Part shown: positions 8,241-24,543 of the stretch, piece by piece | How positions within the stretch are numbered: the stretch's first letter is position 1 | How the letters are laid out: each line of letters starts with the position of its first letter | Virus genome (UHGV): UHGV-1376702 | Length of the DNA stretch: 44,254 bases | Origin: a virus | Reading direction: 5' to 3' (one strand) | Program-made: the position numbers and the translations under genes | The notes under the pieces: model-generated | Databases searched by the model: none | What the model was told of the DNA's origin: nothing | What the model saw: only the letters and a program-made list of their open reading frames with translations

Positions 8241-8260
8241 TGATGTTACAGGAGTAGGAG
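8241..8260 (+). promoter_or_regulatory. conserved motif copy 1 (ATGTTACAGGAGTAGGAG); candidate phage-RNAP promoter
   Basis: One of three identical copies of a 17-19-nt sequence (others at about 29667 and 41572); this copy is intergenic near the putative genome left end. Confidence 0.35.
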
Positions 8261-9082: not shown

Positions 9083-9088
9083 ACTTGA

Positions 9089-9127
9089 GGTAATACAGTA
9101 CTATAAATGCTGTATTACCTTTTTTTA
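9089..9127 (+). terminator. rho-independent terminator
   Basis: Perfect 10-bp stem GGTAATACAG / CTGTATTACC with an 11-nt loop followed by T7, directly after the HNH gene stop. Confidence 0.6.
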
Positions 9128-9263
9128 TAAAAAGTGCTTGCTTTTTTAAATCTGCTAGGTGTATATTTATCCCATCGAAAGCGATACGGTCTACCGGGTA
9201 GCTCTAGATTCCAGAGTCAACTGGATAAGTAGACAGCCTGATAAGTCATATGAAAAACAGGTA

Positions 9264-9292
9264 TTGACAATAGCAGTAAACGCTTTTATAGT
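9264..9292 (+). promoter_or_regulatory. sigma70-type promoter (TTGACA-N17-TATAGT)
   Basis: Perfect -35 hexamer, 17-bp spacer, 5/6 match at -10; predicted start near 9299-9300. A weaker candidate (TTGCTT-N18-TATATT) lies at about 9138-9167. Confidence 0.6.
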
Positions 9293-9541
9293 TTGAACCA
9301 TGTTGCGGAGCAGTGTAGCGCCTAAAGGTGCTCTGACCACTAACCCTAGATACATGATAGTAGTAAGCGTGCCGGACGTTATCACCGGGGTTCTGAGACA
9401 AACCACACTGTCGAGGCGAGAGCAGCTCGCTCCTCTGAATCGAGGGAACAAGGCGCGGAGAGTATCCCGCAAAGAGCATATAACATAGCGTAGCAGTAAC
9501 AAGGCTGCGCTAGATTATGTTCTCTGAGAGGTAAGAAGATT

Positions 9542-9739
9542 ATGCGCAAAGCAAAGCGTTTAGCTTTACGGCGGAATATGCAGTTATCACTGAATCCCAC
9601 CGACAACGTGCCACTCACTGTGAAGCCAAGTAAACAAGGCCTGAGCTGTGAGCACAGGGTGAGAGGTAAGCAAAAGCAACGTGCTGGCAGTAAACAACCT
9701 TCGGGGTGGTCTACTATGAATGCACAGTTCGGACACTAA
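9542..9739 (+). CDS. small basic protein (hypothetical)
   Basis: 65-aa ORF with RBS GAGAGGTAAG 5-9 nt upstream; very Lys/Arg-rich; coding status uncertain. Confidence 0.3.
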   Translation: MRKAKRLALRRNMQLSLNPTDNVPLTVKPSKQGLSCEHRVRGKQKQRAGSKQPSGWSTMNAQFGH

Positions 9740-9743
9740 TTAC

Positions 9744-9775
9744 AGCCTATAGCATCCTATGGGGTGCTATGTGAA
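9744..9775 (+). promoter_or_regulatory. conserved hairpin element, copy A
   Basis: AGCCTAT + 7-bp stem (AGCATCC/GGGTGCT, one G-U) with 4-nt loop + ATGTGAA; about 40 nt upstream of the start at 9815; second copy at 10533. Confidence 0.4.
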
Positions 9776-9814
9776 GTAATTCGTAAAGTAAACAACCAAT
9801 CAAAGGGGTGCATT

Positions 9815-10399
9815 ATGACTAATTCCACCAATTCAACAGGTAAAGTATTCAAGCTCACCGCTGCTGGCAGCATTCGTAAAGCGCTGGGCGACGTAGTGGA
9901 AGCAAAGCGTAACATCACTATCAGCGCGCTCTTCCACGGCCTGATTAGCAGCAACGTATCATGGGCTACGGATATGCAGCGTAGCGATGCCGCTGACTTC
10001 GATATGGTGCTGCGTACGCTGTTGCCTATCAAGCTCAACAAGGAGTCCGGCAAATATGAGTTCAACGCTAAGAAGTGCTATGTGTCGGCTGAAAAGCTGG
10101 GTATCGAACTGGACACTATGCGTCTGGACTACAAACAAGCTGACAAGCAAGGCCGCGAAGTAATCGTAGCTAGATTTTATAGCTCCTGTATGGCCCTGTA
10201 CGCCGCCGAAGCAGAGCAGGTGAAGAATGACGCACTGGATGCCGATACAGTGCGCCTGCAAGCGCTGGGGCGCGTTAAAAACGCTATTAAGAAGGCTAAA
10301 GAGACTGGCGTAAGCGATGCTGACCTCGTGTCTATGCTGGTATCGCAAGGCGTGGACGTACGCGCTGTACTGGACGCAACTTTGAAGGCAGCGGCATAA
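9815..10399 (+). CDS. hypothetical early protein
   Basis: Start refined to ATG 9815 (RBS AAAGGGG); 195 aa; no recognisable motif. Confidence 0.55.
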   Translation: MTNSTNSTGKVFKLTAAGSIRKALGDVVEAKRNITISALFHGLISSNVSWATDMQRSDAADFDMVLRTLLPIKLNKESGKYEFNAKKCYVSAEKLGIELDTMRLDYKQADKQGREVIVARFYSSCMALYAAEAEQVKNDALDADTVRLQALGRVKNAIKKAKETGVSDADLVSMLVSQGVDVRAVLDATLKAAA

Positions 10400-10532
10400 T
10401 TTATAAAGTTCCGGTTATCAAGTGGTGGGCCTTGTGCCCTGCGGCCAACGATGCCGACGCTTTCGATATCCCTGTGCGGGCAATAGCTCAAAAATGGGTG
10501 TACGAGGGATTGGGCGAGTATCTCTAGTGGCA

Positions 10533-10564
10533 AGCCTATAGCGTCCTACGGGACGCTATGTGAA
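10533..10564 (+). promoter_or_regulatory. conserved hairpin element, copy B
   Basis: AGCCTAT + perfect 7-bp stem (AGCGTCC/GGACGCT) with 4-nt loop + ATGTGAA; about 25 nt upstream of the start at 10589; compensatory A:T to G:C change relative to copy A. Confidence 0.4.
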
Positions 10565-10588
10565 TGCAACTGGCGTATGAGGTGGCAT

Positions 10589-10810
10589 ATGAAAGCAATA
10601 CTGGTTTATCCGGGTCATGAACTCTGGCCCGTGTGGTGCAATCGCAAGTACGACGAATACAACTACACTGTGGTTATATTCTCTGACAAAGACACCAATC
10701 AGGAATCCCCATTCGAATTTGTGGATACCTACACCGAAATGGCTGCCCGCACTGTGCTGGACGCCGTTAATCTTGGCATCATCACCGATTGGAGACAACT
10801 ATATGGTTAA
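10589..10810 (+). CDS. hypothetical small acidic early protein
   Basis: Start refined to ATG 10589 (RBS GAGGTGG); 73 aa, Asp/Glu-rich. Confidence 0.5.
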   Translation: MKAILVYPGHELWPVWCNRKYDEYNYTVVIFSDKDTNQESPFEFVDTYTEMAARTVLDAVNLGIITDWRQLYG

Positions 10811-11066
10811 TGTATTCAACATCATTGTGACCAGCGCTATGCTGGTGCTGGGCAACGACGTAAACAACCCAATCCCATACTGCACAGTGCAGTTGCAGCA
10901 ACCCGCAACGCAGGAACCGCAGCCGCGCCCTGAGTATGACCTCTTTGAAGACCCCGAGGGCGGCTGCAAAGAGCTAGGCGCGCGTATTCTTGCCGCGGTG
11001 CAGGAGCAGTACCCGGACGCCGCCGTTACGCTTACGGTGGACGGTAAGAGCAACAGCGATATTTGA
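10803..11066 (+). CDS. hypothetical small early protein
   Basis: In-frame ATG 10803 overlapping the previous stop (ATATGG); hydrophobic N-terminus then acidic Pro/Gln/Glu-rich region; the upstream part of track ORF 10617..11066 overlaps the previous gene out of frame. Confidence 0.45.
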   Translation: MVNVFNIIVTSAMLVLGNDVNNPIPYCTVQLQQPATQEPQPRPEYDLFEDPEGGCKELGARILAAVQEQYPDAAVTLTVDGKSNSDI

Positions 11067-11144
11067 GGTTGGGCATGCACGGAAAGAATCCTGAGACGCT
11101 GCTAAAGCTAGGCTGCACCCAACCACTCCTACTGGGAGGCTCAC

Positions 11145-11489
11145 ATGATGACGGTAGATGAAGCTGCTGTTTTCATGTGGAAGCTGCTGGAAACGCAGGG
11201 CAAGTGCGGGTGCCCTTGGGGAACATTCAAAGAGGTTCCTAATGAACTCAAGCAAATCATACCGGTCGAGCGCAGACTCCTCCGTGTTCGTAGGCAGGAC
11301 TCTACGGTGGTGCTCACAACCTATCGCGAGTATACAGAATCTGCCGCGCGGCAGTTGCAAGAGCACATTCAGTTCGATGTGGTTGCAGCACTGCTACGGT
11401 ACGGGTATCGTGGAGCATATACAAGATTTAGGGCGGCAGTACGGGCATATTATAAGCAAGCGCAGATCGCTGCATGGTACGCACGCTGA
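11145..11489 (+). CDS. hypothetical early protein
   Basis: 114 aa; RBS GGAGG before ATGATG; protein-like composition, unlike the overlapping frame. Confidence 0.5.
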   Translation: MMTVDEAAVFMWKLLETQGKCGCPWGTFKEVPNELKQIIPVERRLLRVRRQDSTVVLTTYREYTESAARQLQEHIQFDVVAALLRYGYRGAYTRFRAAVRAYYKQAQIAAWYAR

Positions 11490-11538
11490 CTTAGTGGTTG
11501 GCGATGAACTCAAAGAACCTATTCAGGAGCAAACTAAA

Positions 11539-13215
11539 ATGCAAGAGACTAACACAGCACCTATCGAATGGAAAATCGTATTACCGGAAGGTGCAAACGC
11601 ACTGCCGATTAAAGAATCAATGTATTCCAGCGGTGATTACTGGACCCCGTTCCAGGACTTGCAAATGCAAGGGGAGGACCATCCCCACACTGAGGGTCCG
11701 CTGCAGGTGCTTATGGGTCTCCGCACTGTCAGTGCGCACACTCCAGGCTTAGAGGTGACTATAGGCGGGGCACTGCACCCAGAGTATCGCGAATCAACGA
11801 TGACGCTCGGCCCGTTGCAAAAGGTGGACCTGTACCGGTCCGGAACTTTCTGCGAACTCTTTGAACCGGTGCGAATCACCATAGACAGCAAGTTCTGGGA
11901 ACGCCGCCGCGACTTCTATGAGGGCGAGGATGTAGTGGTTGAGCGCGTAGTTGCTTGCGTCGAAGAATTCACAGGTTACAAGGTGCACAAGCAGGCCGTG
12001 CAGTTATTTGAGCGCATCATGCTTGCACCAGAAGAGCAGCAGCGCCGCTTATACACTGGCTACGATTACGGCCGCCACACCCGCGATGGCAACTTAGCTG
12101 CGCTGCTCATGAAGTTGCACGGATTCATAGTATCTAGATTCGCCGTGCCATTGGGCTTTGGTTTCCGCAACGGTGAGCCTATCGTGATGCTGGGGCAGCC
12201 GCGGATGCACAAGGACTTCGCCGCAGTTACCGAGTACCGTTGTGTGGAGATGCGCGTAGGTAAGTGGCTCGCTAACTACTACGGCAATGGCGTAGACTTC
12301 CGCGATGCTATCGAAGACCTCAAGGCTATGAACGTAGAGCCTACAACGTACCTGTGCAAGACCGAGCAGGAATGGTACGACTCCTACGAGAATGGCCCGA
12401 GTAGCTGCATGAGTGGATACTCATTTGAGCATAGCCCGGTGCGGGTGTATGCTACTACCAGCCACGGGCTGCCGGACAACGGGCTGCGCCTGTTCATCCA
12501 GTACACCGGGGAACTGTTCGGGGATGACTTCGAAGTGCAGGCACGGGCAATCGTTAACACAGAAACTAACGAGTACGTCCGCGCTTACGGCAACGCTGCG
12601 GATGCAATCCTGCGGGGGCATGGGTACACCAAAAACATTGAATGTCTCGAAGGGGTAATGCTGGCGCGAATACCGCACCCAACATACAACGGCGCAGTGC
12701 TGATGCCATACCTAGATAGCAGCCAGTGCGGCGTAGATGAGTATGGGGATGATGCCTTTGTAATCCGTGATGCTTATGAGTACGAGGCACAAGACTCAGA
12801 AGGATACATCTACGTAGGCACTGAGTCTGCTGGGTGCTGCTGCTGTGAATGTCGCTACTCTGTAGATGACATGCAGGAGACCGCAGATGGTGATATGGTC
12901 TGCGACGGCTGCGTAGAAGAAGGGGATTTTGTGTACGTAGTTGGGCGTGATGGTCTGCATAATCGCTGGAGCTGCACCTGGTCTGATTACCACGACGCCT
13001 ATGTATACGACGAGGACATAGAGCGCTGCGAAGTAGAGGGTGTAGTGCACGACCAAGAGGAACTGGTGTTTGCACAGGACCGGCAAGTGCTTATTGAACA
13101 CGCAGAAGAACACCCAGTGCACGGGTTAATTCTCACTGAGCATGCAGCTGATTGCTTGGGAGAGAAGTACCTGGGAAACGATGAAGATGAAGAAGAAGCA
13201 GAGGAGGCAGCTTAA
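11539..13215 (+). CDS. large early protein of unknown function (Cys cluster, acidic C-terminal tail)
   Basis: Start refined to ATG 11539 (RBS AGGAGC); the 127-codon 5' extension in the track has junk-like composition. 558 aa; CCCCEC and CDGC clusters near the C-terminus; ends NDEDEEEAEEAA. Confidence 0.55.
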   Translation: MQETNTAPIEWKIVLPEGANALPIKESMYSSGDYWTPFQDLQMQGEDHPHTEGPLQVLMGLRTVSAHTPGLEVTIGGALHPEYRESTMTLGPLQKVDLYRSGTFCELFEPVRITIDSKFWERRRDFYEGEDVVVERVVACVEEFTGYKVHKQAVQLFERIMLAPEEQQRRLYTGYDYGRHTRDGNLAALLMKLHGFIVSRFAVPLGFGFRNGEPIVMLGQPRMHKDFAAVTEYRCVEMRVGKWLANYYGNGVDFRDAIEDLKAMNVEPTTYLCKTEQEWYDSYENGPSSCMSGYSFEHSPVRVYATTSHGLPDNGLRLFIQYTGELFGDDFEVQARAIVNTETNEYVRAYGNAADAILRGHGYTKNIECLEGVMLARIPHPTYNGAVLMPYLDSSQCGVDEYGDDAFVIRDAYEYEAQDSEGYIYVGTESAGCCCCECRYSVDDMQETADGDMVCDGCVEEGDFVYVVGRDGLHNRWSCTWSDYHDAYVYDEDIERCEVEGVVHDQEELVFAQDRQVLIEHAEEHPVHGLILTEHAADCLGEKYLGNDEDEEEAEEAA

Positions 13216-14261
13216 TGTTCTTGAATCCGCATGGGATTGATATGCAGCTGCTCTTGCAGATACTGCGAACGCACCGGCCTAGCTGGGCAAGCACTAAGTG
13301 GTTCGATCCGCTGCTTATGCAGGCGCTGGGTAGTGGTATGCACTACGTAAAGGATAAGCACGGGAACTACTTCGTGCTGGTGGGGGACTCAGAGCAAAGT
13401 GATGTAGCGTTTACGTCTCATCTCGATACGGTGGCCCGCCCAACCAGCGCTGCACCGGACGTCGGCTGCACTAACAAGGGCGTGCTGTTCGTAAAGAATC
13501 CGCAACAAGCTGACTGCTTGGGGGCGGACTGCGGTGCCGGTGTCTACCTGATGCTGGAGATGCTGCGGCGGGGTGTGCACGGACGCTACTGCTTCTTCGT
13601 GGATGAGGAGGTTGGCTGCGAAGGCAGCGCTGCATCGGTCAAGGATGACACTGGATTTTGGACTGGTGTCAAGGCGATGATTAGCTTTGACCGCCGCGGA
13701 GATGGTATCATTACGCACCAGCGGTACATGCGCTGCTGCTCTGATACCTTTGCCAAGACTCTGGCAGAGCGCCTAGGACGCACGGAGCAGCACTTACAAA
13801 AGGGTGTGTATACTGACTCAGCCGAGTTCGTCGGCATCATCCCTGAGTGCACCAACGTCGGTGTAGGGTACATGCACGAGCACACTCCGGATGAGGTGCT
13901 GGACCTGAACATCCTGGGGAAAGTGCTTGAGCGGGTACTGCAAGATGGTACGTTCTCGCACCTTCCGATTGAGCGGGACCCGAAGGTAGTAGAGCCGGAC
14001 CAATGGCTCTCAGCATCGACGCTCAGTTTACGGCAGCCATGGGATATGCCGCCAGACGAGGACCCGCAATTGCTGGCAGCGTTCCGTGTAGTGTCGCAGC
14101 TTTCTAAACAACAACTGGTTAGCTGGGTGCAGGAGAATCCAGAGAAGGCGGCGGAGTACATAATGGTGTTCTCCGATTACGGCTTTAAAGAAGAACTGAT
14201 TGAATTAGGCACCCGAGTCGTAGAAGACTGGGGTGGATACGATAATATTGTGGAGGGTTAA
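13215..14261 (+). CDS. di-zinc metallopeptidase-like protein (clan MH, M20/M28/M42-like)
   Basis: 348 aa; ordered motifs SHLDTV (His-x-Asp), GADCGAG (bridging Asp), DEEVGCEGS (Glu-Glu), FDRRGDG, GYMHEH match the metal-ligand pattern of M20/M28 aminopeptidase/deacylase folds; recognised by eye only. Confidence 0.45.
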   Translation: MFLNPHGIDMQLLLQILRTHRPSWASTKWFDPLLMQALGSGMHYVKDKHGNYFVLVGDSEQSDVAFTSHLDTVARPTSAAPDVGCTNKGVLFVKNPQQADCLGADCGAGVYLMLEMLRRGVHGRYCFFVDEEVGCEGSAASVKDDTGFWTGVKAMISFDRRGDGIITHQRYMRCCSDTFAKTLAERLGRTEQHLQKGVYTDSAEFVGIIPECTNVGVGYMHEHTPDEVLDLNILGKVLERVLQDGTFSHLPIERDPKVVEPDQWLSASTLSLRQPWDMPPDEDPQLLAAFRVVSQLSKQQLVSWVQENPEKAAEYIMVFSDYGFKEELIELGTRVVEDWGGYDNIVEG

Positions 14262-14263
14262 TT

Positions 14264-14722
14264 ATGTCTAATTTTAAAGTTGGTGATAAAGTTGTGCGTA
14301 CAGTTGAGAGCAAAACGTTCTGGCTCATTCAAGGCGTTAAGAATTATTACATTGTAACGGATGTTGGCGCAGGTGGTTACTGGTTACAGTTGGATGGGGT
14401 GCGAGATAAGGAGGACCCCCGTCCGTGGTACGCGCCAAACTTCGAACTGTACCAAGAGCCCGAGGACGAGGAGCTGCCGCCGGTTCCAGCCAGTGTAACC
14501 TACGTGAACTCCAAGCGCGATTCTGGAAATGACCAGCGCCTAGTCCTTGATAAGGACAACGGTGAAGGGGAAGGATTAATGTACATCGGAGTAATCCCTC
14601 GCAAGGGAAGTACTCGAGCACAGATGGAGATTGGGATTAACATCGACCCTGATTCAGCCCTGCAGTTGGCGCACGACCTGCGCCGCATGGCTATGGATAT
14701 CAAACGTAAGGAGAAAGCATAA
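14264..14722 (+). CDS. hypothetical protein
   Basis: 152-aa ORF; A+T-rich 5' half relative to the surrounding genome; no motif. Confidence 0.45.
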   Translation: MSNFKVGDKVVRTVESKTFWLIQGVKNYYIVTDVGAGGYWLQLDGVRDKEDPRPWYAPNFELYQEPEDEELPPVPASVTYVNSKRDSGNDQRLVLDKDNGEGEGLMYIGVIPRKGSTRAQMEIGINIDPDSALQLAHDLRRMAMDIKRKEKA

Positions 14723-14910
14723 TGAAAGTAAAAGCTCTAGAAAATAGCCCAGAGAACTTTCTGTTCACGGACAGAACCTATACCTTAATTAACGTAAAGG
14801 ATGGTCGCGCCACTATAAAAGATGATTTAACCAATTTAACTACGGTGGTTAAAGTGGAGCGAATTTTACTCACAGAGGGTAACGCTACCGATGGACCAGC
14901 CCTGGCTTAG
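14722..14910 (+). CDS. hypothetical small protein
   Basis: 62-aa ORF; start overlaps previous stop (TAATG); A+T-rich. Confidence 0.35.
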   Translation: MKVKALENSPENFLFTDRTYTLINVKDGRATIKDDLTNLTTVVKVERILLTEGNATDGPALA

Positions 14911-15676
14911 AGCGTGCAAGCGCCTGGCCGTGGGGCAGAGGGCACGCTTTCGGTGCTGCGGCAGGGACGCCGCCGGGGTGCTCTACAATAACCCGGATGC
15001 CTGGGAATACTATTGCCACCGCTGCAAACAGGTGGGCAAGGAGCACAAGCAGTACCAGCGCATACAGTTACAGGAAGAGCCGAGGGTGCAGCCCTCTGCA
15101 CCTGCAGATGCAATTTGCATTAGCCAAGCGCCTGCGGAAACGCAGAGTTTTATTTACGGATTCCTGACCACAAAGGGAATCATGCCTGAAATGGTGGAGG
15201 ATGCAGAATGGAGCAAAGAGAAACAGCGGATAATCTTCCGTGTCGGAAGCGCTGCTCTAGGCCGTGCAGTGCATGCTCGGCAGCAACCGAAGTGGGTAAT
15301 GTACGGCCAGCCAATAGCTTTCGCTGTCGCGGCACCTGCCGTAGCACCGGCTGTAGCTGCGGCCGCACCTCTAAAGGTCGTGCTCACCGAGGACTTACTC
15401 TCAGCCCGGAAGATACAGCACGCAGTTACGAGCTACAGTGCGTTGAACGTGCAGGCTATAGCTATGCTGGGTACACGCTTGCCCACGCCGCTGAGGGCTT
15501 GGCTGATACAGAATCGCCCGGAAGTGATTCTGATGCTGGACAATGACCCAGCAGGGCACGCTGGAGTAGCGGCGGCGCGCCGCGCACTGCGTCCGTTCAT
15601 GCAGTGTCGTGAGCATTACTTCGCTGCGGACCCGAAGGATGCAGAAATCAAAGAGATTCTGGAGGCTTTACAATGA
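14891..15676 (+). CDS. DNA primase (zinc ribbon + TOPRIM)
   Basis: 261 aa; N-terminal CCG...CHRC zinc-ribbon; TOPRIM-like acidic motifs (VVLTEDLL and ILMLDNDPAGHAG). Confidence 0.75.
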   Translation: MDQPWLRACKRLAVGQRARFRCCGRDAAGVLYNNPDAWEYYCHRCKQVGKEHKQYQRIQLQEEPRVQPSAPADAICISQAPAETQSFIYGFLTTKGIMPEMVEDAEWSKEKQRIIFRVGSAALGRAVHARQQPKWVMYGQPIAFAVAAPAVAPAVAAAAPLKVVLTEDLLSARKIQHAVTSYSALNVQAIAMLGTRLPTPLRAWLIQNRPEVILMLDNDPAGHAGVAAARRALRPFMQCREHYFAADPKDAEIKEILEALQ

Positions 15677-15867
15677 ATATGGGTATCTGGGTTTTAATCA
15701 TGGCGATTAATGGCAGTGCGGTTAGCGACACAGACTTCGCTGCGCTAACCACTCAAGAGTTCACAACGGAGGCTGCCTGCAACAAGGCGGCCAAGGCGTT
15801 CGAAGAGAAGTTTGACACATTCAGGGTGTATACCGCTAAAGCAATCTGCGTTCCGAAGGAGGTTTAA
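15673..15867 (+). CDS. small protein with signal-peptide-like N-terminus
   Basis: 64 aa; hydrophobic N-terminus MNMGIWVLIMAINGSAVS; overlaps primase stop. Confidence 0.35.
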   Translation: MNMGIWVLIMAINGSAVSDTDFAALTTQEFTTEAACNKAAKAFEEKFDTFRVYTAKAICVPKEV

Positions 15868-16305
15868 TTGGACCTAATAGGTGATTGCATAGACCACGGG
15901 AGAAAGGGCAACCACAATGGGTATGGAGTAACCTCGTGGCCTGGAAACAGGAAACGCACAGCACTGAAACACAGGGTTGTGATGGCTAATAAATTAGGCG
16001 TCCCATTGGAGGCAATAAGCGGAAAGGTTGTCAGGCATAAGTGTGACAATCCCCGCTGTATAAACCCGGACCACTTAGAACTTGGCACTCAACTTGACAA
16101 CGTAGAAGATGCCAGAAAGAGGGGCCGGGTTTCTAGTGGCTCAAGACACTACAAGGCAACTGTTTCAGCGGACTTGATACAGTGGGTACGTGATGTGTAC
16201 GTAAAGCGCAGCAAAGAGTACAACCAGTACGCCTTAGCCAAGAGACTGGGAGTATCCCGCTCGTGTATAAACAACTGGCTCAACAACTACACTAGGGGTG
16301 GGTGA
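15868..16305 (+). CDS. HNH homing endonuclease
   Basis: 145 aa (TTG start after RBS AGGAGG); motifs CIDHG, HR, VRHKCDNPRCINPDHLELGT...N shared with four paralogues in this window. Confidence 0.8.
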   Translation: MDLIGDCIDHGRKGNHNGYGVTSWPGNRKRTALKHRVVMANKLGVPLEAISGKVVRHKCDNPRCINPDHLELGTQLDNVEDARKRGRVSSGSRHYKATVSADLIQWVRDVYVKRSKEYNQYALAKRLGVSRSCINNWLNNYTRGG

Positions 16306-17588
16306 GTATGGATTTAATAGTTGTGCGTGCGATGTGCACGCAGAAGGTTTGGAACCGACTGCGAGAGCAGATTCCTAAGTCGATGCTTGCGCCGGATACG
16401 TCGAACCTTCTGGACTGGGTGGGGCTGTACTGGAACACGTACCCGGAGCACCAGGAGGTGCAATGGGATGCGATGCAGAGCATGCTCAACCTCCGGGCGG
16501 GGCACCTATCCCGGGAAGAGCGGGTAATCATGGACGAGCTTATGCGGGGAGTACAAGCCGTGCCGCAGGATTCTGTGGTGGGGATTGTCCAGACCCTGAA
16601 TGAGCTGGCCTACAGCGGGGAGGTAGCAGCGCTGACGCAGCGCTACCAAGACGGTGAGGAGATTGATTACCTGCTGGAAATGAAGCACCTACAGCGCAAG
16701 TACGGTGACGGCGCTGCGGTGCATGATTCGCTGCTTGAATGGGAGAGCGGTAGTGTTGACGAAATACTTGCCGCGACTGACGAGAGCGGAGGTCTTAAAC
16801 TGGGCGTGTTCGAGCAACTCTCTAGCAACATCCGGGGCCTACGCGGCGGGGACTGCATCGCAGTGGCTGCCCCTGTGGACTCTGGTAAAACTAGCCTGCT
16901 TGCTGCTATTGCTGTGGACTTTGCTGAGCAGATGCAGCAGCAGCCGGAAGTATACGGGGACCGCCCGATTCTCTGGCTGGTTAACGAGGGTCCGGCGACG
17001 CGTACGGTGCCGAGGGTATATCAAGCGGCGCTGCACTGGACTCTGGCAGAGATTAAGGACAGGCACAGTAAGCAAGAGTTCGTGCCAGCCTACCTCAAGA
17101 AAGTAGGCAGGGCTGACCGGATTCGTGTTAAGGCTGCGCACTCCTTGACGATGGCGCAGATATCCACGCTCATGGAGGAGATGCGCCCTGCGGTAATCAT
17201 CATCGACATGGTGGCGAACATCCGTGGCGGCACTATGGAGACCGAGCACCAGAACCTCGAGGCGAAATGGCAGGAGCTGCGCATACTTGGGTGCGAGAAC
17301 GACTGCGCTATTGTAGGCACTATGCAGCTTTCACTCGAAGGTTACAACATGCTGTTCCCGCCGCTCACCGCTATGAAGCAGAGCAAGATTGGCGTACAGG
17401 GTGCCCTGGACTTGGCTATTATGATGGGATGCTTGGACAGAAACGAGCAGCCGCACATGCAAAACGTCCGTGGTATCAGTACTCCGAAGAACAAGATGGC
17501 ACTGTCTGGTAAAGAGTCGCTACTGCAATTCGAGGTGGGATTCGAGCCGGGTCGTTGCCGCTTTGACGAGGGCCAGATTAACCGGTGA
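16302..17588 (+). CDS. replicative DNA helicase (DnaB/T7 gp4-like)
   Basis: 428 aa; Walker A (VAAPVDSGKTSLL), Walker B-like (VIIIDMVANI). Confidence 0.8.
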   Translation: MSMDLIVVRAMCTQKVWNRLREQIPKSMLAPDTSNLLDWVGLYWNTYPEHQEVQWDAMQSMLNLRAGHLSREERVIMDELMRGVQAVPQDSVVGIVQTLNELAYSGEVAALTQRYQDGEEIDYLLEMKHLQRKYGDGAAVHDSLLEWESGSVDEILAATDESGGLKLGVFEQLSSNIRGLRGGDCIAVAAPVDSGKTSLLAAIAVDFAEQMQQQPEVYGDRPILWLVNEGPATRTVPRVYQAALHWTLAEIKDRHSKQEFVPAYLKKVGRADRIRVKAAHSLTMAQISTLMEEMRPAVIIIDMVANIRGGTMETEHQNLEAKWQELRILGCENDCAIVGTMQLSLEGYNMLFPPLTAMKQSKIGVQGALDLAIMMGCLDRNEQPHMQNVRGISTPKNKMALSGKESLLQFEVGFEPGRCRFDEGQINR

Positions 17589-17640
17589 CTTCCCTAGCGC
17601 CTTCTCTGAGGGCGCTATGTAGGTACAATAGGAGGCTACT

Positions 17641-17796
17641 ATGCTTAAACCGTCAGACATTAACTACCTCGATGAAGAGGTAATCAAGGCGTACGCTGCA
17701 TCTGCAGGTACTTTCCGTAAACAGTTTGCACTGGACAGCAGCCAGCTGATTGTGCATCTGGCGATTAATAAGGCTCGGAGGGCTAATTGGAAATGA
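17641..17796 (+). CDS. hypothetical small protein
   Basis: 51-aa ORF with strong RBS AGGAGG; its stop overlaps the ATG of the next HNH gene (ATGA). Confidence 0.35.
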   Translation: MLKPSDINYLDEEVIKAYAASAGTFRKQFALDSSQLIVHLAINKARRANWK

Positions 17797-18242
17797 CAGG
17801 TTGTATTGACCACGGACAGAAGGGAAGCACTTGCCGAGGAAAGGGCGCTGGGTATGGCCGCTCCAGATTTGACGGGAAGACAACTGGCAGCCACCGCAAA
17901 GCATACTGTGTAGCTCACAACTTGAAGCTGAGCGATATCGCGGGACTTGTAGTCCGGCATTCGTGCGACAATCCTCGGTGCATAAATCCGGAGCACCTGC
18001 TACTAGGGACTTCTAGCGATAATATGCAGGACCGAAATAAAGGTGCGCGTAATTTGCTGGGCAGCCGCAACCCTGCTGCCAGACTTACCCCAGAAGACGT
18101 GCACAGCATACGAGAAGCATACGCTGGCGGTGAGACCCAGGTATCTATAGCGAGACGCTTCGGGACAAGTCAAGGATACATATCTAATATCATAAAGGGG
18201 AGGGTATGGAATGAGCAGAAGCATCCTGATAACGGATTATGA
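17793..18242 (+). CDS. HNH homing endonuclease
   Basis: Motifs CIDHG, HR, VRHSCDNPRCINPEHLLLGT...N; track start 17787 is TTG, ATG at 17793 is more likely. Confidence 0.8.
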   Translation: MTGCIDHGQKGSTCRGKGAGYGRSRFDGKTTGSHRKAYCVAHNLKLSDIAGLVVRHSCDNPRCINPEHLLLGTSSDNMQDRNKGARNLLGSRNPAARLTPEDVHSIREAYAGGETQVSIARRFGTSQGYISNIIKGRVWNEQKHPDNGL

Positions 18243-20610
18243 GACGCAAAACCACCCATATTACGGTAGTGTTGCTTCCCCGTACTGTCCGGATAATTAC
18301 ATCGTAGAATCAGCGTGGCGTATTGACCGCACGCACGATGACGGTACGGTAGAAGTAGGCCCCGTAGAGAGTGTACGGTATAACAGTCGCGCGCACTTTG
18401 AAGCGGCACCTGTATCAGAATGGCTCCCAATACCAGCTGACTGTTGGCTGATTGTGGCTCACAACGCCGCATATGAGATTAGCTGGTTCCTAACCTTTGC
18501 GCGCGCCGAGTTTGAGGCCTTCCTAAAGCGGGGAGGTCGCGTATTCTGTACGATGCATTCTGAGTACATCGCCTCGGACTTTCAGAGCATGTATCCGTCG
18601 CTGGACGAGACGGCTCCTAAGTACGGTGGTACGCACAAAGTAGACGGGGTTAAGCTTCTGTGGGAGCAGGGTGTGCTAACTTCCCAGATTGACCCGATGC
18701 TGCTGCATGACTACCTGGTTAACGGGGACATCCCGAACACGGCCCTGTGCTTCTACGGCCAGTGCGCTACGTTCGCCCAGCGCAATCAGATGCAGTACGT
18801 GTGGGAGCGTATGGATGCCTTGCTGGCTTGGGCGTACTGCGAATGGTTCGGCCTGTTCGTTAATATGCCAATTGCACGCAAGAACCAGGAGGAGCAGGAG
18901 CAGCGCATCCGTGAGATTAAGCAGGAACTGCAGCAGTACATCCCGAAGGACTTACCAGAGACGCTAGATTTCAACTTCGGGTCGGACTTCCATATGTCAG
19001 CACTGGTGTACGGCGGGCCTATCAAGTACCGCAAGAAGGTGCCATATGACCCGCCGCAGTACGTCAAGGCCGACTTCTATAAGTACGAGGACGGAGAGGG
19101 TGCGCACACCTATATACCTGTACACGACACGCACATGCAAGAACTTCAAACGGAAGGCGGATGGTGGCGTGTAGTGACATATCGTGCGGGTAAGAACAAG
19201 GGGCTACCCAAAGTATTCCGCCTAGACACCGAGGAGGAGAAGCTAAAGTGGGAAGATGACCTTTACTTCTGCCCGGGCCTAGTGAACATACAGGAGCTGC
19301 CGGAAGTTATCCGGGAGAAGTATGCAGAGCGTGGAGAGTTCCGACAGGCGCGCACCATGCAGGACGGTACGCCAGTATACAGCACCAGCACTGACGCAAT
19401 GGAGGCGCTAGCCCGCCAAGGGTTCGAGTTCTGTAAGTTGGTGAATGAGCTGGCGGCGCTGGAGAAGGACACTGGAACTTACTACTTGCGTGAAGTTCTG
19501 GACGCAGAGGGTAAAGTCAAAGAGCGGAAGGGTATGTTACAGTACGTAATCCCTGAGCGTCCTGATGGTTCTGGCATCATACACCACCGACTGAATACAT
19601 GCGCCACCGTAACCGGGCGCCTGAGTAGCTCTAACCCGAACCTGCAGAACCTACCCCGACCGGATGAAGACGGGGATGGGGTAGCTAAATCCAAGGTGAA
19701 GCAGGTATTCACCAGCCGATTCGGGGATAACGGACGCATCACTGAGGTTGACTACTCGGCGCTGGAAGTGGTTATGTCCTGTGTGCATACGGGGGACACC
19801 AAACTACTGGGGCTGCTGCAGGGCGGCACGGATATGCACTGTTACCGCCTAGCTTTCCGCGAGGAACTGCCGTATGAAGAAGTGTATGAGCGCTGCCACA
19901 ACAAGAAGCACGAGCTGCATCCGCTTTGGAAGGCAATGCGTACAGGTATTAAGGCTCCTAGCTTCGCAGCCCAGTATGGCGCTACGGCTAAGGGGATTGC
20001 GTTTGCTACTGGATGTACGGTGGAATTCGCACAGGCTTTCTTGGACAACGAGGCTGCGCTGTTCCCGCAAACAATTGGCTTCCGCGCTGTTATCAAGGAA
20101 GAAGTAGAGCGCACCGGGGCAGCCGGGCGCATGTACCGCGAGCAGGCTGACGATGGCAGCTACCGAGTCTACCGCATCGGGACGTGGACTAGCCCAGCAG
20201 GTGCCCGCTATAGCTTCCGCCAGAAGGAGCAGTGGAAAGAGGTTGTGCCTGGGCAGCGTAAGCAGAAGGTAATGGACTACAAGGAAACAGAGATGGCTAA
20301 CTACTGGTGCCAGGGGGAAGCATTCTTCCTGATGGCGGTAGCCGCCGGTATGGTTCTGCGTGCACTCCTGGCCCGTGACTGGTTCGACAATCAGGTGTGC
20401 CTGATTACGAACGTGCACGATGCGTTGTATCTGGACAGCGCCAACCCGGAGGTTGGACGTGAGGCGAGCCTGCTGGTTAAGCAGTGCATGGAGGATGCAC
20501 CTAAGCGTATTCACCAGCTCTGGCCTAACTACGGCATCATTGGTGAGGTCCCGTTCCCAGCAGAGGCTGAGATGGGTACGAGTATGTACAGTAAGGAGAA
20601 GGTAGAATGA
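18211..20610 (+). CDS. DNA polymerase, family A (T7 gp5-like) with 3'-5' exonuclease domain
   Basis: 799 aa; exo motif ILITDYETQN; pol motif A (EVDYSALEVV), motif B (R..IKAPSFAAQYG), motif C (VHDALY); TGRLSSSNPNLQNLP. Confidence 0.9.
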   Translation: MSRSILITDYETQNHPYYGSVASPYCPDNYIVESAWRIDRTHDDGTVEVGPVESVRYNSRAHFEAAPVSEWLPIPADCWLIVAHNAAYEISWFLTFARAEFEAFLKRGGRVFCTMHSEYIASDFQSMYPSLDETAPKYGGTHKVDGVKLLWEQGVLTSQIDPMLLHDYLVNGDIPNTALCFYGQCATFAQRNQMQYVWERMDALLAWAYCEWFGLFVNMPIARKNQEEQEQRIREIKQELQQYIPKDLPETLDFNFGSDFHMSALVYGGPIKYRKKVPYDPPQYVKADFYKYEDGEGAHTYIPVHDTHMQELQTEGGWWRVVTYRAGKNKGLPKVFRLDTEEEKLKWEDDLYFCPGLVNIQELPEVIREKYAERGEFRQARTMQDGTPVYSTSTDAMEALARQGFEFCKLVNELAALEKDTGTYYLREVLDAEGKVKERKGMLQYVIPERPDGSGIIHHRLNTCATVTGRLSSSNPNLQNLPRPDEDGDGVAKSKVKQVFTSRFGDNGRITEVDYSALEVVMSCVHTGDTKLLGLLQGGTDMHCYRLAFREELPYEEVYERCHNKKHELHPLWKAMRTGIKAPSFAAQYGATAKGIAFATGCTVEFAQAFLDNEAALFPQTIGFRAVIKEEVERTGAAGRMYREQADDGSYRVYRIGTWTSPAGARYSFRQKEQWKEVVPGQRKQKVMDYKETEMANYWCQGEAFFLMAVAAGMVLRALLARDWFDNQVCLITNVHDALYLDSANPEVGREASLLVKQCMEDAPKRIHQLWPNYGIIGEVPFPAEAEMGTSMYSKEKVE

Positions 20611-20828
20611 GTATAAAGTCTGGCAGTGTTGTGGAGTTGATGGACCTGGGGCCTGAGCCGATAGACCCGCGGTATGCAGCATACTTCGCCCCGGGTACGA
20701 GGCACACGGTTATGTTCTTCGACCCGGTTACTGGGGAGATAGAACTAAGTTATCCTGGACTAGTAGTAAGTAGACCGGGGGATGGTGTTACCTTCTTCCC
20801 GGGGGAGTACAAGCTTATCGTGGAATAG
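20607..20828 (+). CDS. hypothetical small protein
   Basis: 73-aa ORF overlapping the DNA polymerase stop (ATGA). Confidence 0.4.
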   Translation: MSIKSGSVVELMDLGPEPIDPRYAAYFAPGTRHTVMFFDPVTGEIELSYPGLVVSRPGDGVTFFPGEYKLIVE

Positions 20829-20931
20829 TGATAGGTGGACCCTTGGGTGGTGTAGGGGGTTAGGGTAGCATGGAAATACACTGGGGTCAACTAAATAATT
20901 AAATAAAATTATTTGTTGACTCTAGCTTGAT

Positions 20932-20946
20932 TCTGTGATTCACAGA
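20932..20946. promoter_or_regulatory. perfect 15-bp palindrome TCTGTGA-T-TCACAGA (operator-like)
   Basis: Read directly; lies in the 160-bp intergenic region upstream of HNH gene 20990, next to a TTGACT hexamer and an A+T-rich tract. Confidence 0.3.
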
Positions 20947-20989
20947 GAATTAATGTGATACGAGTAGGAACAACACAAGAGGATACCGA

Positions 20990-21424
20990 ATGTCGATGTG
21001 TATTGACCACGGGTATAACAAATGCCTTAACAAGAACGGATACCGCCGGGCATGGTATAAGCCGACCAGGCGATTGGAGCTGCTGCATCGGGTGGTGTAT
21101 GCTGAGCATAACGGGCTGGATATAAGGGCGCTGGCTGGCCTGTCTGTTAGACATACCTGCGATAACCCCAGGTGCATTAACCCTAAGCACTTAGTATTGG
21201 GAACGCATATGGATAATATGCGGGACCGTGCAGAGCGCGGAAGGAACCCAGATGTGCGTGGGGATAGGAACCCAAAAGCGCAGTTAACTTGGGATGCTGT
21301 GCAGGATATCAGGGATAACTATATCCCATACAAGAAAGGTATGCGGCAACACTTTGCTAATAAGTACGGTGTAGGTGTACATGTAATTAGTGACGTAATA
21401 AGTAACAGGAGCTGGAATGCCTAA
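20990..21424 (+). CDS. HNH homing endonuclease
   Basis: 144 aa; RBS AAGAGGA; motifs CIDHG, HR, VRHTCDNPRCINPKHLVLGT...N. Confidence 0.8.
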   Translation: MSMCIDHGYNKCLNKNGYRRAWYKPTRRLELLHRVVYAEHNGLDIRALAGLSVRHTCDNPRCINPKHLVLGTHMDNMRDRAERGRNPDVRGDRNPKAQLTWDAVQDIRDNYIPYKKGMRQHFANKYGVGVHVISDVISNRSWNA

Positions 21425-22397
21425 GTTAAACACAATAAAGCTATTCACCAAAGAGCAACACATAGATATCTTGAGCAAGCACAGCTCTAACGTGGATGCT
21501 GCTGCCGCCTATAATAAGCTGGCGGGACTGGACGAGCCAGTGGTGTATCGACAGATGGTGAAGTACTGGCGCAGCATATTCCTAGACCACGCTGGGAGCA
21601 AGGGTAAGGCAATATCACACATGAAGGAGGCACTAAAGCTCATACAGCCCAGTCCCACTGATGACATCGGCAAAACCTTCGTGCCGGAAGTGTGCCACCG
21701 TATTCTCGTAGTTGGGGATTTGCATGCCCCCTATACGCACGTAGATGCTATGGCCTTCTTAGAATCTGTGCGAGACGCCTACTGTCCGGACATGGTTGTA
21801 CAGGTAGGCGACGAGACGGACGGCCACGCTATATCATTCCACGAAAGTAACCCGAACCTGGATAGCGCCGGGGTGGAGCTGGAGAAAGCTAAGCTCGTAC
21901 TGGAGGAGCTACATGAACTGTTCCCGAACCTATTGGTTTGCGATTCCAATCACGGCAGTCTGGTTTACCGCAGGGCGAAAGCTCACGGGCTACCAGTGCA
22001 ATTCATCAAGAAGTACCGAGATATACTTTTCCCTGAACATGGTGCCCCGGCGTGGTCTTGGGCTGACGCGTGGGTACTCAATACCCCACTTGGCCCGGTT
22101 AGATTCCAGCATCAAGTGTCGGGTGACTTCATGCTCAACGCTAGCCACGAAAGAACCAGCCTTGTCCTTGGTCACGAACATGGTCGCTTTGAGGTGCAAT
22201 ATGCAGCTAGCTCAACAGCTTTGTACTTTGGTGCGTATGCTGGGTGTCTGATTGACCGTAAGAGCATGGCCTTTGCTTACGGCAGACTCACCCGCAAGAA
22301 ACCAATCCTGGGTGTGATGGTAATCACCGAGGGTTGCCCGCAGTTAATTCCGATGCTGCTTGACGACGATGGTCGTTGGGTTGGTCGTACTAAATAA
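21417..22397 (+). CDS. calcineurin-like metallophosphoesterase
   Basis: 326 aa; GDLH ... GDETD ... CDSNHG motifs in canonical order (GDxH, GDxxD, GNH). Confidence 0.6.
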   Translation: MPKLNTIKLFTKEQHIDILSKHSSNVDAAAAYNKLAGLDEPVVYRQMVKYWRSIFLDHAGSKGKAISHMKEALKLIQPSPTDDIGKTFVPEVCHRILVVGDLHAPYTHVDAMAFLESVRDAYCPDMVVQVGDETDGHAISFHESNPNLDSAGVELEKAKLVLEELHELFPNLLVCDSNHGSLVYRRAKAHGLPVQFIKKYRDILFPEHGAPAWSWADAWVLNTPLGPVRFQHQVSGDFMLNASHERTSLVLGHEHGRFEVQYAASSTALYFGAYAGCLIDRKSMAFAYGRLTRKKPILGVMVITEGCPQLIPMLLDDDGRWVGRTK

Positions 22398-22407
22398 CAC
22401 AGAGGTG

Positions 22408-22578
22408 ATGATGAAAATGGGAATCTGTTCTGTACTGGGCCTTATCTTTGTAACCTTGAAACTGACTGGCGTTATCGCCTGGTCCTGGTTGTGGGTGCTG
22501 CTCCCGTTCTGGGGGCCTATGGCACTCGGCGTAATCCTAGTGTTCTTGGCGGTGGCCCTCAAAGCTGCCTCCCGCTAA
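22408..22578 (+). CDS. small membrane protein (two predicted TMDs)
   Basis: Start refined to ATG 22408/22411 (RBS AGAGG); about 56 aa; hydrophobic segments ICSVLGLIFVTL and MALGVILVFLAVAL. Confidence 0.4.
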   Translation: MMKMGICSVLGLIFVTLKLTGVIAWSWLWVLLPFWGPMALGVILVFLAVALKAASR

Positions 22579-22629
22579 GCCCTGCATCTGCACGTAAATA
22601 TCATTCAAACTAAACGAGGAAGTAATTAT

Positions 22630-23418
22630 ATGACGATGAATGCACTGGACACCCTGAACTCCCTGGTAGCGGCTGCTATTGAAACGCAGGATGTTGATAT
22701 GACTGAAACCGCACAGGGCGGTGCGTATGAGGACGCGCTGCTGCCGAAGGGTGAATACTACGGCTACTTCACCGAGTACGTAGAAATCGGTAAGCGCCTG
22801 CCGACTAAGGGTGGCAAGCCGACCGGTAAGCCCGCAGTAGCTAACGTACGCATCGGCATTGTAGTGTTCGGTCCTAACGGCGAAGTGAAGCGTATCCGCC
22901 CGTTCCCGATGGCTATCAGTAACTTTGAGCGCGCAGGCTTCAAGAAGTTCTTCGACAAGCTCAACTACGACAATAGCATTAAGCATGCAGCACAGCGTCT
23001 GGGCCAGGCCTTCACCTTCCCGATTGATGAGCACACCAGCGCCGCGGGCAAGAAGTCCAACATCGTGGACCTGTCCGGTATCCGCCCGATTCCGAAATTC
23101 GACCCGAACACTGGCGAGCCTATCAAGATGCCTGCCATGGATGCCTCTGAGATTAAGCTGTTCCTGTGGAACAACCCAACCAAAGAGACCTGGGATAGCC
23201 TGCACATCGAAGGCACCTTCGACGATGGTAAGAGCAAGAACTGGATTCAGGAGGATATGTACAAGGCTGTAGACTTCCCTGGCAGTGCTCTGGATATTCT
23301 GCTGAACGCTGGCTCGGTTCCTAGTCCGGCAGCTATGCAGGCACCCGCAGCCCCGGCTGCACCAGTGGCCCCTGCAGCCCCTGTGGCGCCAGCAGCACCC
23401 GCCGCACCTCAAGCCTAA
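22630..23418 (+). CDS. hypothetical protein with Pro/Ala-repeat C-terminal tail
   Basis: 262 aa; RBS GAGGAAG; C-terminus APAAPAAPVAPAAPVAPAAPAAPQA. Confidence 0.5.
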   Translation: MTMNALDTLNSLVAAAIETQDVDMTETAQGGAYEDALLPKGEYYGYFTEYVEIGKRLPTKGGKPTGKPAVANVRIGIVVFGPNGEVKRIRPFPMAISNFERAGFKKFFDKLNYDNSIKHAAQRLGQAFTFPIDEHTSAAGKKSNIVDLSGIRPIPKFDPNTGEPIKMPAMDASEIKLFLWNNPTKETWDSLHIEGTFDDGKSKNWIQEDMYKAVDFPGSALDILLNAGSVPSPAAMQAPAAPAAPVAPAAPVAPAAPAAPQA

Positions 23419-23471
23419 TCAACCCTAACCTAAACTAATACGGCCCCTCCTAGGGGCCTTAGAGGAAGCCT

Positions 23472-23726
23472 ATGAGCATCATCAAGATTCTCATCAAACT
23501 CCTGAGCGCAGCCTACACAGCAGAAGCTAAACGCGCCGATGCCAAAGTGCAGTTTAACGAGCAGTTGTCAGTTAAATTCGCAGACGACGCAGTGCGTCTG
23601 GCCGCTCAATCCGAGGCGCGCGTAGAGGCATCCAAGCATAGCAAAGAGTTAGCCGAGGCGTGCGCTTGCCATGCTGATAACCTGCGCGCTAAGCGTGGTG
23701 AAGTAGCTAACTTCCTGGAGGTATAA
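23472..23726 (+). CDS. hypothetical protein (hydrophobic N-terminus)
   Basis: 84-aa ORF with RBS GAGGAAG. Confidence 0.4.
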   Translation: MSIIKILIKLLSAAYTAEAKRADAKVQFNEQLSVKFADDAVRLAAQSEARVEASKHSKELAEACACHADNLRAKRGEVANFLEV

Positions 23727-24005
23727 ATGCGCATAATCACATGGGCCAAAGAACAGTACGCTGTGTTTCTGCTTCTGCGTGCACAGCGTTTGCAGAAGCG
23801 AGCAAACGACTGGCACTGGGCAGCTAATTCTCACGCACACAGGGCAAGCCTTCTGGGTGCCGAGATTAGCGCACACCGCTATCACTTGACTCGCCAGTGC
23901 GCCAAGTCCCGACGCCGTGCATACGCCCTGGGTGCAGAGGCTACGGCCACTGAGACCAAAGCCCACAATTTCATTTCAAAACACAAATTGAAAGGATTTG
24001 ACTAA
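23727..24005 (+). CDS. hypothetical basic protein
   Basis: 92-aa ORF directly abutting the previous stop; Arg/His/Lys-rich. Confidence 0.4.
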   Translation: MRIITWAKEQYAVFLLLRAQRLQKRANDWHWAANSHAHRASLLGAEISAHRYHLTRQCAKSRRRAYALGAEATATETKAHNFISKHKLKGFD

Positions 24006-24379
24006 TGGACAAAGTACTAGACGCATACAAGAAACTGGTTCTGGCTGTAGGTTACGTGAACTGTAGCGCCGTTCAAGGTTTCGACAATGGTGACCAGCTC
24101 GGCGCTGTGTACGATGCTCTGGACAAGCTGGCGGCCCTGTACGGCATGGACCTGGAGTTGGCTGCTACCGCCTTCAAGGAGCACAATGACCTGGCGGCAC
24201 ATGCCGATAAGTTACGGGGTGATGACCTAGTGCTTATCCGCATTGTGGGTACCCTAAGCATCGGGCTGGCGGAGATTGGTTCCTGCATCTACGACGTAGA
24301 CCAGAGCCTGCGTACCACGGAAGTAATCGGGGACATGCTTGGCACCGTGTTGGTGCTATCTGAACTGGAGGGTATATAA
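24005..24379 (+). CDS. hypothetical protein
   Basis: 124-aa ORF; start overlaps previous stop. Confidence 0.45.
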   Translation: MDKVLDAYKKLVLAVGYVNCSAVQGFDNGDQLGAVYDALDKLAALYGMDLELAATAFKEHNDLAAHADKLRGDDLVLIRIVGTLSIGLAEIGSCIYDVDQSLRTTEVIGDMLGTVLVLSELEGI

Positions 24380-24540: not shown

Positions 24541-24543
24541 AGA

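Follow-up and report, generated by a model that had tools for sequence, protein, structure and literature searches.

The stretch of DNA analysed here (44,254 nucleotides [nt], UHGV virus genome UHGV-1376702; hereafter the window) comes from a Klebsiella Drulisvirus, a KP34-like podovirus (Autographiviridae, Slopekvirinae, according to the matched records carrying taxonomy). In a megablast search with positions 14800-21500, 265 phage records matched, 233 of which are from Klebsiella phages, the top matches being RCIP0044 (95.6%), RMN1 and F19. Positions 14891-20610, read on the plus strand, form a replication module in which the genes for a primase, a helicase and a family-A DNA polymerase are interspersed with small open reading frames (ORFs) and two HNH genes, HNH1 (15868-16305) and HNH2 (17793-18242). 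A preliminary description of this DNA had placed the two HNH genes at the junctions between the replication genes, and all of its coordinates check out against the verified ORF positions. As judged from sequence comparison, HNH1 and HNH2 are probably free-standing homing endonuclease genes (His-Me/HNH_3 core and C-terminal helix-turn-helix [HTH]) lodged at the translation starts of essential replication genes, where they would spread by intronless homing.

The comparative sample consisted of 5 annotated GenBank relatives and 65 IMG/VR loci collected with the helicase protein (70 loci), in each of which three junctions were located by six protein anchors; base-by-base junction analysis and linkage tests were conducted on 66 loci. 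At the polymerase start, anchoring at the DNA level failed in 46 of the 71 sequences (70 loci plus the window) because the polymerase tract has diverged, and protein anchors were used instead. All three junctions are strongly length-polymorphic among loci, ranging from 19 nt (primase abutting helicase) to 667 nt between primase and helicase (J1), from 63 to 1186 nt between helicase and polymerase (J2), and from 415 to 956 nt between polymerase and phosphoesterase (J3). Clustering of the ORFs found in these intervals yielded at least 15 HNH_3 families and many small ORFs without known function. The HNH_3 assignment was confirmed by Pfam for the 10 representative families tested, one of which (C38) scored below the cut-off.

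HNH1 (145 amino acids [aa]) matches Pfam HNH_3 (PF13392) at E=1.6e-10 and 40.8 bits and HNH2 (149 aa) at E=3.3e-7 and 30.3 bits (cut-off 24.8 bits). They fall in PHROG 59/6254 ('HNH endonuclease') and PHROG 6254, respectively (E about 1e-26), and GenBank copies 98-99% identical to them bear the annotation 'HNH endonuclease'. Each protein ends in a putative HTH that would act as a separate DNA-binding module, the HTH matches of HNH1 being weak (HTH_23, E=2.1e-5). The window contains four HNH paralogs, 30-43% identical to one another, in which H56, C58, N60, P61, R62, C63, I64, N65, H68 and N77 are invariant; the presumed catalytic histidine is H58 in HNH1 and H56 in HNH2. HNH1 and HNH2 thus appear to carry an HNH_3 / His-Me finger catalytic core with a Cys-rich zinc loop and are predicted to be active nucleases. 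Because the paralogs form one family and the junction features described below recur base for base in independent genomes, the layout of the HNH junctions is not the product of chance.

At the first site, the DNA primase gene (14891-15676; Toprim, Pfam Toprim_2 E=9.8e-5) is followed by a 64-aa ORF of unknown function (15673-15867; PHROG 3766), which is ATGA-coupled to the primase and has a hydrophobic N-terminus. This ORF is a sporadic cassette, present in 28 of the 70 loci and separate from the HNH element. The TTG start of HNH1 (15868) is the base right after its TAA, as previously noticed. In alleles without HNH1 (empty alleles), the helicase opens with TTG GAC CTA ATA GTA/GTT directly past the TAA of whichever gene precedes; in 17 Drulisvirus loci and 2 distant relatives, the primase stop itself abuts the helicase TTG (19-20 nt between anchors). 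The first 13 nt of HNH1, TTGGACCTAATAG (15868-15880, its first 4 codons), match exactly the opening 13 nt of the helicase ORF in genomes lacking HNH1, and the sequence diverges beyond them. HNH1 was said to lie exactly at the primase/helicase junction: it does lie between the two genes, but the sporadic 64-aa ORF intervenes and the element is a 440-bp insertion inside the helicase ORF, after nt 13, i.e. within codon 5. It uses the ribosome-binding site (AAGGAGG), the weak TTG start and the first four codons of the helicase; the ribosome-binding site lies in the 3' end of the 64-aa ORF, AAGGAGGTTTAA, and serves the helicase in empty alleles. When aligned with its paralogs, HNH1 shows three extra N-terminal residues, as expected for a fusion to captured helicase codons.

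The helicase, deprived of its original start, is provided with a replacement initiation region by the HNH1 element (16294-16320). This region comprises an SD-like (Shine-Dalgarno-like) AGGGGTGGG (16294-16302), the HNH1 stop TGA (16303-16305) and ATGGATTTAATAG (16308-16320), the 3' end of the element reading ...AGGGGTGGGTGAGT, then ATGGATTTAATAG and the remainder of the helicase. The latter sequence is a copy of the 13-mer with three changes: the helicase start codon goes from TTG to ATG when HNH1 is present, while GAC to GAT and CTA to TTA are synonymous. As all three changes keep M-D-L-I, the second 13-mer is most probably translated. The DnaB-like replicative helicase (16308-17588; Pfam AAA_25 / DnaB_C) has its conserved N-terminus, (M)DLIVV..., at ATG 16308, 2 nt past the HNH1 stop, and from there counts 426 aa, as in aligned relatives. 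The overlap between the HNH1 stop and the helicase start proposed in the preliminary description relied on GTG 16302, the first possible start of the ORF; since the conserved start is ATG 16308, the two genes are tightly adjacent and do not overlap. Several GenBank records mis-call the TTG codon at which HNH1 begins as well as the true start of the helicase, a point of relevance to annotation. The ATGGATTTAATAG restart allele is present in 4/4 loci with HNH1 and in 0/62 loci without it (Fisher p=1.4e-6), and HNH1 is found at the identical nucleotide behind four upstream genes, namely the 64-aa ORF, the primase directly (L009), oC36 (L021) and oC20 (phage Hope). No HNH1-linked tract extends into the helicase beyond its first ~40 nt. 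Comparing two HNH1 sub-lineages gave a ratio of non-synonymous to synonymous divergence (dN/dS) of 0.05-0.08 at dS 0.35-0.42, which indicates that the HNH1 protein is under strong purifying selection.

The second site shows a comparable replacement. Here, the upstream gene is a 51-aa ORF (17641-17796; PHROG 4548) that is nearly universal in the genus (58 of the 70 loci) and whose stop lies in an ATGA overlap with the start of the next gene. In empty alleles, this next gene is the polymerase, opening with ATGACAACCAGT...; when HNH2 is present, it takes that slot, its ATG (17793) forming the ATGA overlap. The polymerase then restarts from a replacement initiation region within the 3' end of HNH2 (18197-18213), with the Shine-Dalgarno sequence GGGGAGGG (18197-18204), a 6-nt spacer and ATG 18211; this ATG falls within TGG-AAT-G, whose first two codons encode the W-N conserved at the C-terminus of the HNH protein. 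The resulting family-A DNA polymerase (18211-20610) counts 799 aa (Pfam DNA_pol_A E=9.5e-28). The ATGA coupling of HNH2 to the 51-aa ORF and its overlap with the polymerase start, both reported previously, are borne out; the overlap amounts to 32 nt, the last 11 HNH2 codons being in another frame, and HNH2 ends at a TGA created by a polymerase L10Y change, between catalytic residues D9 and E11. Nine nucleotides upstream, at the end of the 51-aa ORF, HNH2 carriers read AATTGG and other alleles A(A/G)(G/A)TGG. We also considered a capture of two polymerase codons by HNH2 (shared ATGACA) and downgraded it, as the stop/start overlap itself imposes ATGA and chance may account for the other two bases. 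In two loci (L010 and L060), the GGAGGG ribosome-binding site just upstream of the HNH2 start (equivalent to ~17776-17785) has given way to runs of 9-12 G, which put the end of the 51-aa ORF out of frame; they could stem from genuine slippage or from sequencing errors in the metagenome assemblies.

The preliminary description had further suggested that such insertions may affect expression of the downstream essential gene. The anatomy agrees with this, as both HNH genes take the original initiation position and supply a new ribosome-binding site and start codon, with which expression of the downstream gene may change. The same rebuilt starts bear on an alternative that we consider extremely improbable, namely that the HNH ORFs reside within self-splicing introns and that the helicase (with TTGGACCTAATAG as exon 1) and the polymerase are restored by RNA splicing. 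HNH genes of phage DNA polymerases are often intron-encoded (I-HmuI, I-TslI, I-PfoP3I; PMC3428280), and HNH1 is flanked by a 13-nt repeat. However, a scan of positions 15400-21700 gave no match to any Rfam family, group I introns included, even at E<=1. The helicase and the polymerase are both furnished with a ribosome-binding site and an in-frame start of their own, no interruption is seen in the polymerase ORF from 18211 onwards, and the HNH ORFs are in translational register with the genes that precede them. An intron origin was rejected on the basis of this empty Rfam scan and of the rebuilt starts.

HNH2 is also tied to the adjacent part of the polymerase. The linked tract covers polymerase nt 1-360 (18211-18570), about 120 codons among which is the N-terminal D9-x-E11 exonuclease motif. 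Here, the window shares 98.3-100% identity with the seven other HNH2 carriers in Drulisvirus, but only 60.6-68.1% with all 57 Drulisvirus non-carriers analysed. Outside the tract, identity is about 80-97% to carriers and non-carriers alike over polymerase nt 361-840 and over the helicase, and the flanks are put at 90-96% in either group. Within the first 75 nt of the polymerase, only 44 positions are common to occupied and empty alleles. On the upstream side, the linked tract measures at most ~12 nt. The corresponding polymerase allele, MSRSILITDYE, is found in 9/9 loci with HNH2 and in 0/56 others (Fisher p=3e-11). Moreover, the 778-nt HNH2 cassette is 98.9% identical in pairwise comparisons among 8 carriers, versus 94.8% for their helicases and 90.1% for polymerase nt 361-1400. 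This lower divergence of the cassette relative to its flanks indicates recent spread across diverged backgrounds.

GenBank records follow the same pattern: the HNH2-type polymerase tract occurs in exactly the records that have HNH2 or a remnant of it, plus one recombinant. The latter, phage Hope, lacks HNH2 and combines an empty-type polymerase over the first ~110 nt with HNH2-type sequence at nt 115-360, and this natural recombinant narrows the obligately linked part to the region of the exonuclease motif. In this phage (PQ374180.1; L071/L072, junction 43167..300), the circularised record begins inside the polymerase gene, which contains a ~75-nt direct duplication (ASPYCPDNYVVESAWRIDRTHDDGT twice), probably an assembly artefact. 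A search for a donor of HNH2 and its tract identified none, the nearest non-Drulisvirus relative being Shigella phage Buco (L062), which carries an HNH2 orthologue at the same site but is only ~73% identical. Further sharp blocks of low identity (30-65%) were seen in the polymerase at alignment columns 841-1020, 1261-1560 and 1681-1800 (~19050-20010 in the window), in genes otherwise ~95% identical; they adjoin no HNH gene in the window. Some sampled polymerase genes are several hundred nt longer, hence an alignment of 3078 columns.

Both genes are sporadic. The helicase was found in 247 GenBank phage records, of which 12 contain HNH1 and 27 a full-length HNH2, with remnants of HNH2 in 3 more, and no GenBank relative among these about 247 carries both. 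KP-Rio/2015, for example, carries HNH1 and F19 carries HNH2, and KpV71 and RCIP0044 have empty-site alleles. Similarly, HNH1 is present in 4 and HNH2 in 9 of the 66 loci. Each gene is thus restricted to a minority of otherwise about 95% identical genomes and is always located at the same nucleotide. The preliminary description had proposed alignment with relatives as a test and identical HNH genes in all of them as evidence against homing; the alignment yields the opposite pattern, as empty-site alleles are the majority among relatives at both sites. Its view of these junctions as homing sites is supported by the sporadic presence of the genes, the identical insertion nucleotide in different backgrounds and the linked flanks, which are either recoded or foreign.

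HNH2 is not the only nuclease gene using the polymerase start: HNH families C17, C31, C38 and C46 are inserted there as well, each with its own polymerase N-terminal allele, D9 and E11 being invariant throughout the alleles. By comparison, genomes with a non-nuclease cassette all retain the common MTTSIMHIDLE allele or a close variant. This difference is relevant to the main rival explanation, according to which the HNH genes are passive cargo of recombination hot spots. Under this explanation, the junctions are cassette slots between short conserved linkers (GGAGGyTnTAA|TTGGAC at site 1, GGAGGGCTnAnTGGAAATGA at site 2), into which any small gene is shuffled by ordinary phage recombination and where spread is not driven by the HNH proteins. 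Such slots do exist: the same boundary sequences enclose at least 20 other small-ORF families, as well as an ORF of 238 aa (L049) and one of 182 aa (L023), at these three junctions, GGAGG..TAA ends nearly every cassette upstream of the helicase, and site 2 cassettes span ATGA to ATGA. However, it is with HNH cassettes alone that the adjacent essential gene has private, strongly diverged alleles (five polymerase N-terminal alleles for five HNH families). Moreover, divergence is 5-10 times lower in the HNH2 cassette than in its flanks, and HNH1 is inserted within an ORF rather than at a linker. We therefore regard passive shuffling as improbable.

Several observations nevertheless weigh against homing. 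The many non-nuclease small ORFs found at the same boundaries imply that a nuclease is not needed for these sites to vary. Mosaicism is also seen in other parts of the polymerase gene, far from any HNH gene, so that the linkage could in part be due to ordinary recombination being suppressed where homology is low. In addition, the HNH1 cassette is about as diverged as its flanks (94.0% vs 92.3% identity), so that this comparison does not by itself indicate recent horizontal spread. Many IMG/VR loci come from a single dataset (3300045988) and are hence not independent samples. Finally, sequence searches found no solved relative of HNH1 and only sub-threshold HTH matches for HNH2, and a fold search with the nuclease core gave no significant match.

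Degraded, rearranged and lost copies are also observed. In four loci with a J2 of 257-258 nt (L016, L021, L028 and L068), the HNH_3+AP2 gene C17 was lost through a deletion between copies of a 9-nt microhomology, CAGCAGCCA, common to the 51-aa ORF and the 3' end of the C17 HNH gene; the polymerase N-terminal allele linked to C17, MYQIMIVDLEVENFEYYGNV, is retained in all four as a deletion scar. HNH2 is frameshifted in L060, and an HNH gene at site 1 is internally deleted in L031. In phage SRD2021 (MZ208805.1; L073), a 217-nt deletion (equivalent to window positions 18148-18364) fuses HNH2 to about codon 52 of the polymerase. Lost with it are the C-terminus of HNH2, the ribosome-binding site and start codon of the polymerase, and the D-x-E exonuclease motif along with the rest of the first ~51 codons of that gene; the record annotates the HNH2-polymerase fusion ORF. 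If this deletion is real, the polymerase could lack Exo I, an assembly error being the alternative. Finally, phage KpV17Sklif (PQ663821.1; L074) carries at positions 740-1186, directly after the helicase and with no 51-aa ORF, a chimeric HNH gene made of a foreign N-terminal half and the C-terminal half of HNH2. The joint coincides exactly with the sequence encoding the conserved CDNPRCINPEH, suggesting domain shuffling between HNH paralogs. Taken together, such copies fit the pattern of invasion, decay and loss expected of homing endonuclease genes.

They also bear on the possibility that the HNH proteins are domesticated, i.e. kept for a benefit to the phage, which might consist in the exclusion or degradation of co-infecting relatives or in some part played in replication or recombination, rather than being purely selfish. 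The strong purifying selection on HNH1 and the maintenance of four paralogs in one 44-kb genome would agree with domestication, for which there is precedent in phage endonucleases involved in competition between co-infecting phages (PMC11620839) and in marker exclusion by HNH genes (PMC12724721). However, each gene is absent from most relatives and degraded copies are common, implying that none is required, and we consider domestication as the sole reason for their presence very unlikely. It is otherwise compatible with homing, marker exclusion being the same mechanism seen from the phage's side.

From the anatomy, distribution, linkage and selection reported above, we infer how cleavage, target choice, protection of the carrier allele and translational coupling may operate in intronless homing of HNH1 and HNH2. 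During a mixed infection, the enzyme would nick or cut the HNH-less allele, near the helicase start in the case of HNH1 (predicted cleavage near TAATTGGACCTAATAG|T), and in the 5' exonuclease-coding part of the polymerase in the case of HNH2 (predicted cleavage within polymerase nt 1-110). Recombinational repair from the HNH-carrying genome would then copy in the HNH gene together with adjoining DNA. The carrier allele would escape cleavage, its site being split by the insertion and the adjoining sequence being recoded; the linked variants would presumably confer resistance. Insertion on a start codon would allow a promoter-less gene to be expressed by translational coupling without inactivating the essential gene. 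Scanning for sigma-70 promoters and terminators gave no hit where the HNH genes adjoin their neighbours. Upstream of the 51-aa ORF, a hairpin region (17597-17627) was considered as a phage promoter and rejected, as the window contains no second copy of it.

More speculatively, the polymerase start in Drulisvirus may be contested by at least five HNH families (HNH2, C17, C31, C38 and C46), each bringing a functional replacement for the N-terminal exonuclease segment, of which only the catalytic D-x-E and a few neighbouring residues remain constant. Homing would then exchange part of an essential enzyme; co-infecting phages would use the nucleases as mutual-exclusion weapons against one another, and it is chiefly the nucleases that would drive the polymerase N-terminus to diversify. 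Under the same tentative scheme, which we think possible but have less reason to believe than to doubt, captured and rebuilt starts would be a general 'plug-in' design of the HNH_3+HTH family, in which TGG, the conserved C-terminal Trp codon, would together with the AGG/AAT-G after it also provide the ribosome-binding site or start of the downstream gene.

The closest known systems are the free-standing homing endonucleases of T4-like phages (SegB, SegF, SegG and MobE), which lie in the gaps between essential genes or at their ends, are lacking in close relatives, and spread by cleaving the endonuclease-less allele, with co-conversion of flanking markers over tens to hundreds of bp, a process known as intronless homing (PMC2988022, PMC2790892, PMC2330249). 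MobE is likewise an HNH enzyme, and the one-sided tract linked to HNH2 (at most 12 nt upstream, 360 nt downstream) resembles the outcome of cleavage at a distance from the insertion site. Unlike the Seg and Mob enzymes, the proteins described here (HNH_3 with HTH) share no sequence relationship with them save the HNH motif and reside in a T7-like podovirus. Their genes, known here from sequence alone, are inserted directly at the start codon, capturing the initiation signals and rebuilding the start.

In Aeromonas phage Aeh1, a mobE insertion reportedly splits nrdA (Friedrich et al. 2007, NAR). That case would similarly involve a free-standing HNH gene inside an essential ORF that still functions. 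The two differ in that the Aeh1 nrdA product is reassembled from two translated pieces, whereas only 4 codons are cut off here, and these are duplicated so that a full-length protein is made.

Other phage groups provide further parallels. Homing endonuclease genes cluster near essential genes and at boundaries of genetic exchange in ICP1 and T4 (Barth, Dunham & Seed 2023; PMC10448857), and Skunavirus genomes contain HNH families specific to insertion sites (PMC12724721). HNH-3 and other homing endonuclease genes located beside replisome genes, turnover of families at one locus, shuffling of endonuclease domains and sharp identity boundaries are described there. Their counterparts here are the several HNH families at the polymerase start, the KpV17Sklif chimera and the tract boundary at polymerase nt ~360, in a different phage group from the ICP1, T4 and Skunavirus of these studies. 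Closer to the window, the order primase-helicase-polymerase-endonuclease VII is reported to be conserved in KP34-like and PhiM1-like phages, with hypothetical ORFs and homing endonucleases varying in between (PMC6115819), and Drulisvirus isolates differ by homing endonucleases (PMC7013548). The passages retrieved from these genome papers mention them descriptively, without junction anatomy, occupancy counts, linkage or mechanism. In the literature passages available to us, we found no description of the start-capture and rebuilt-start layout or of the perfect linkage between HNH2 and a foreign 120-codon polymerase segment, no search having been aimed at these features.

The captured starts and the linked polymerase segment are details of a known kind of element rather than a new kind of system. 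They nonetheless give a base-resolution picture of how a promoter-less selfish nuclease gene can occupy the start codon of an essential gene and leave its host viable. In a genus used therapeutically, the Klebsiella Drulisvirus, a 120-codon piece of the DNA polymerase is inherited within a mobile cassette, and mixtures of related phages, such as phage cocktails, could undergo one-sided gene conversion through such genes. HNH1 and HNH2 may also be considered candidate site-specific nickases with predictable targets.

The two other paralogs in the window deserve mention. HNH3 (20990-21424), an HNH_3+HTH gene, is located at the start of a metallophosphoesterase gene (21417-22397) in the same layout and was found in 17 GenBank records. 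It uses the ribosome-binding site region of the empty allele, and the phosphoesterase restarts at an ATG inside the TGG-AAT-G codons of HNH3, with an N-terminus reading MPKLNTIKLF versus (TTG)AKVSLIKLF in empty alleles. HNH4 (25824-26273; HNH_3 E=1.1e-11) overlaps the end of a small upstream ORF and, by 19 nt, the start of an Endonuclease_7 gene (26255-26677); related DNA occurs in only 8 GenBank records. A function as a terminase-associated packaging cofactor of the HK97 gp74 type was rejected, as all four HNH genes lie in the replication / DNA-metabolism module. All four are located on the starts of DNA-metabolism genes (helicase, polymerase, phosphoesterase and endonuclease VII).

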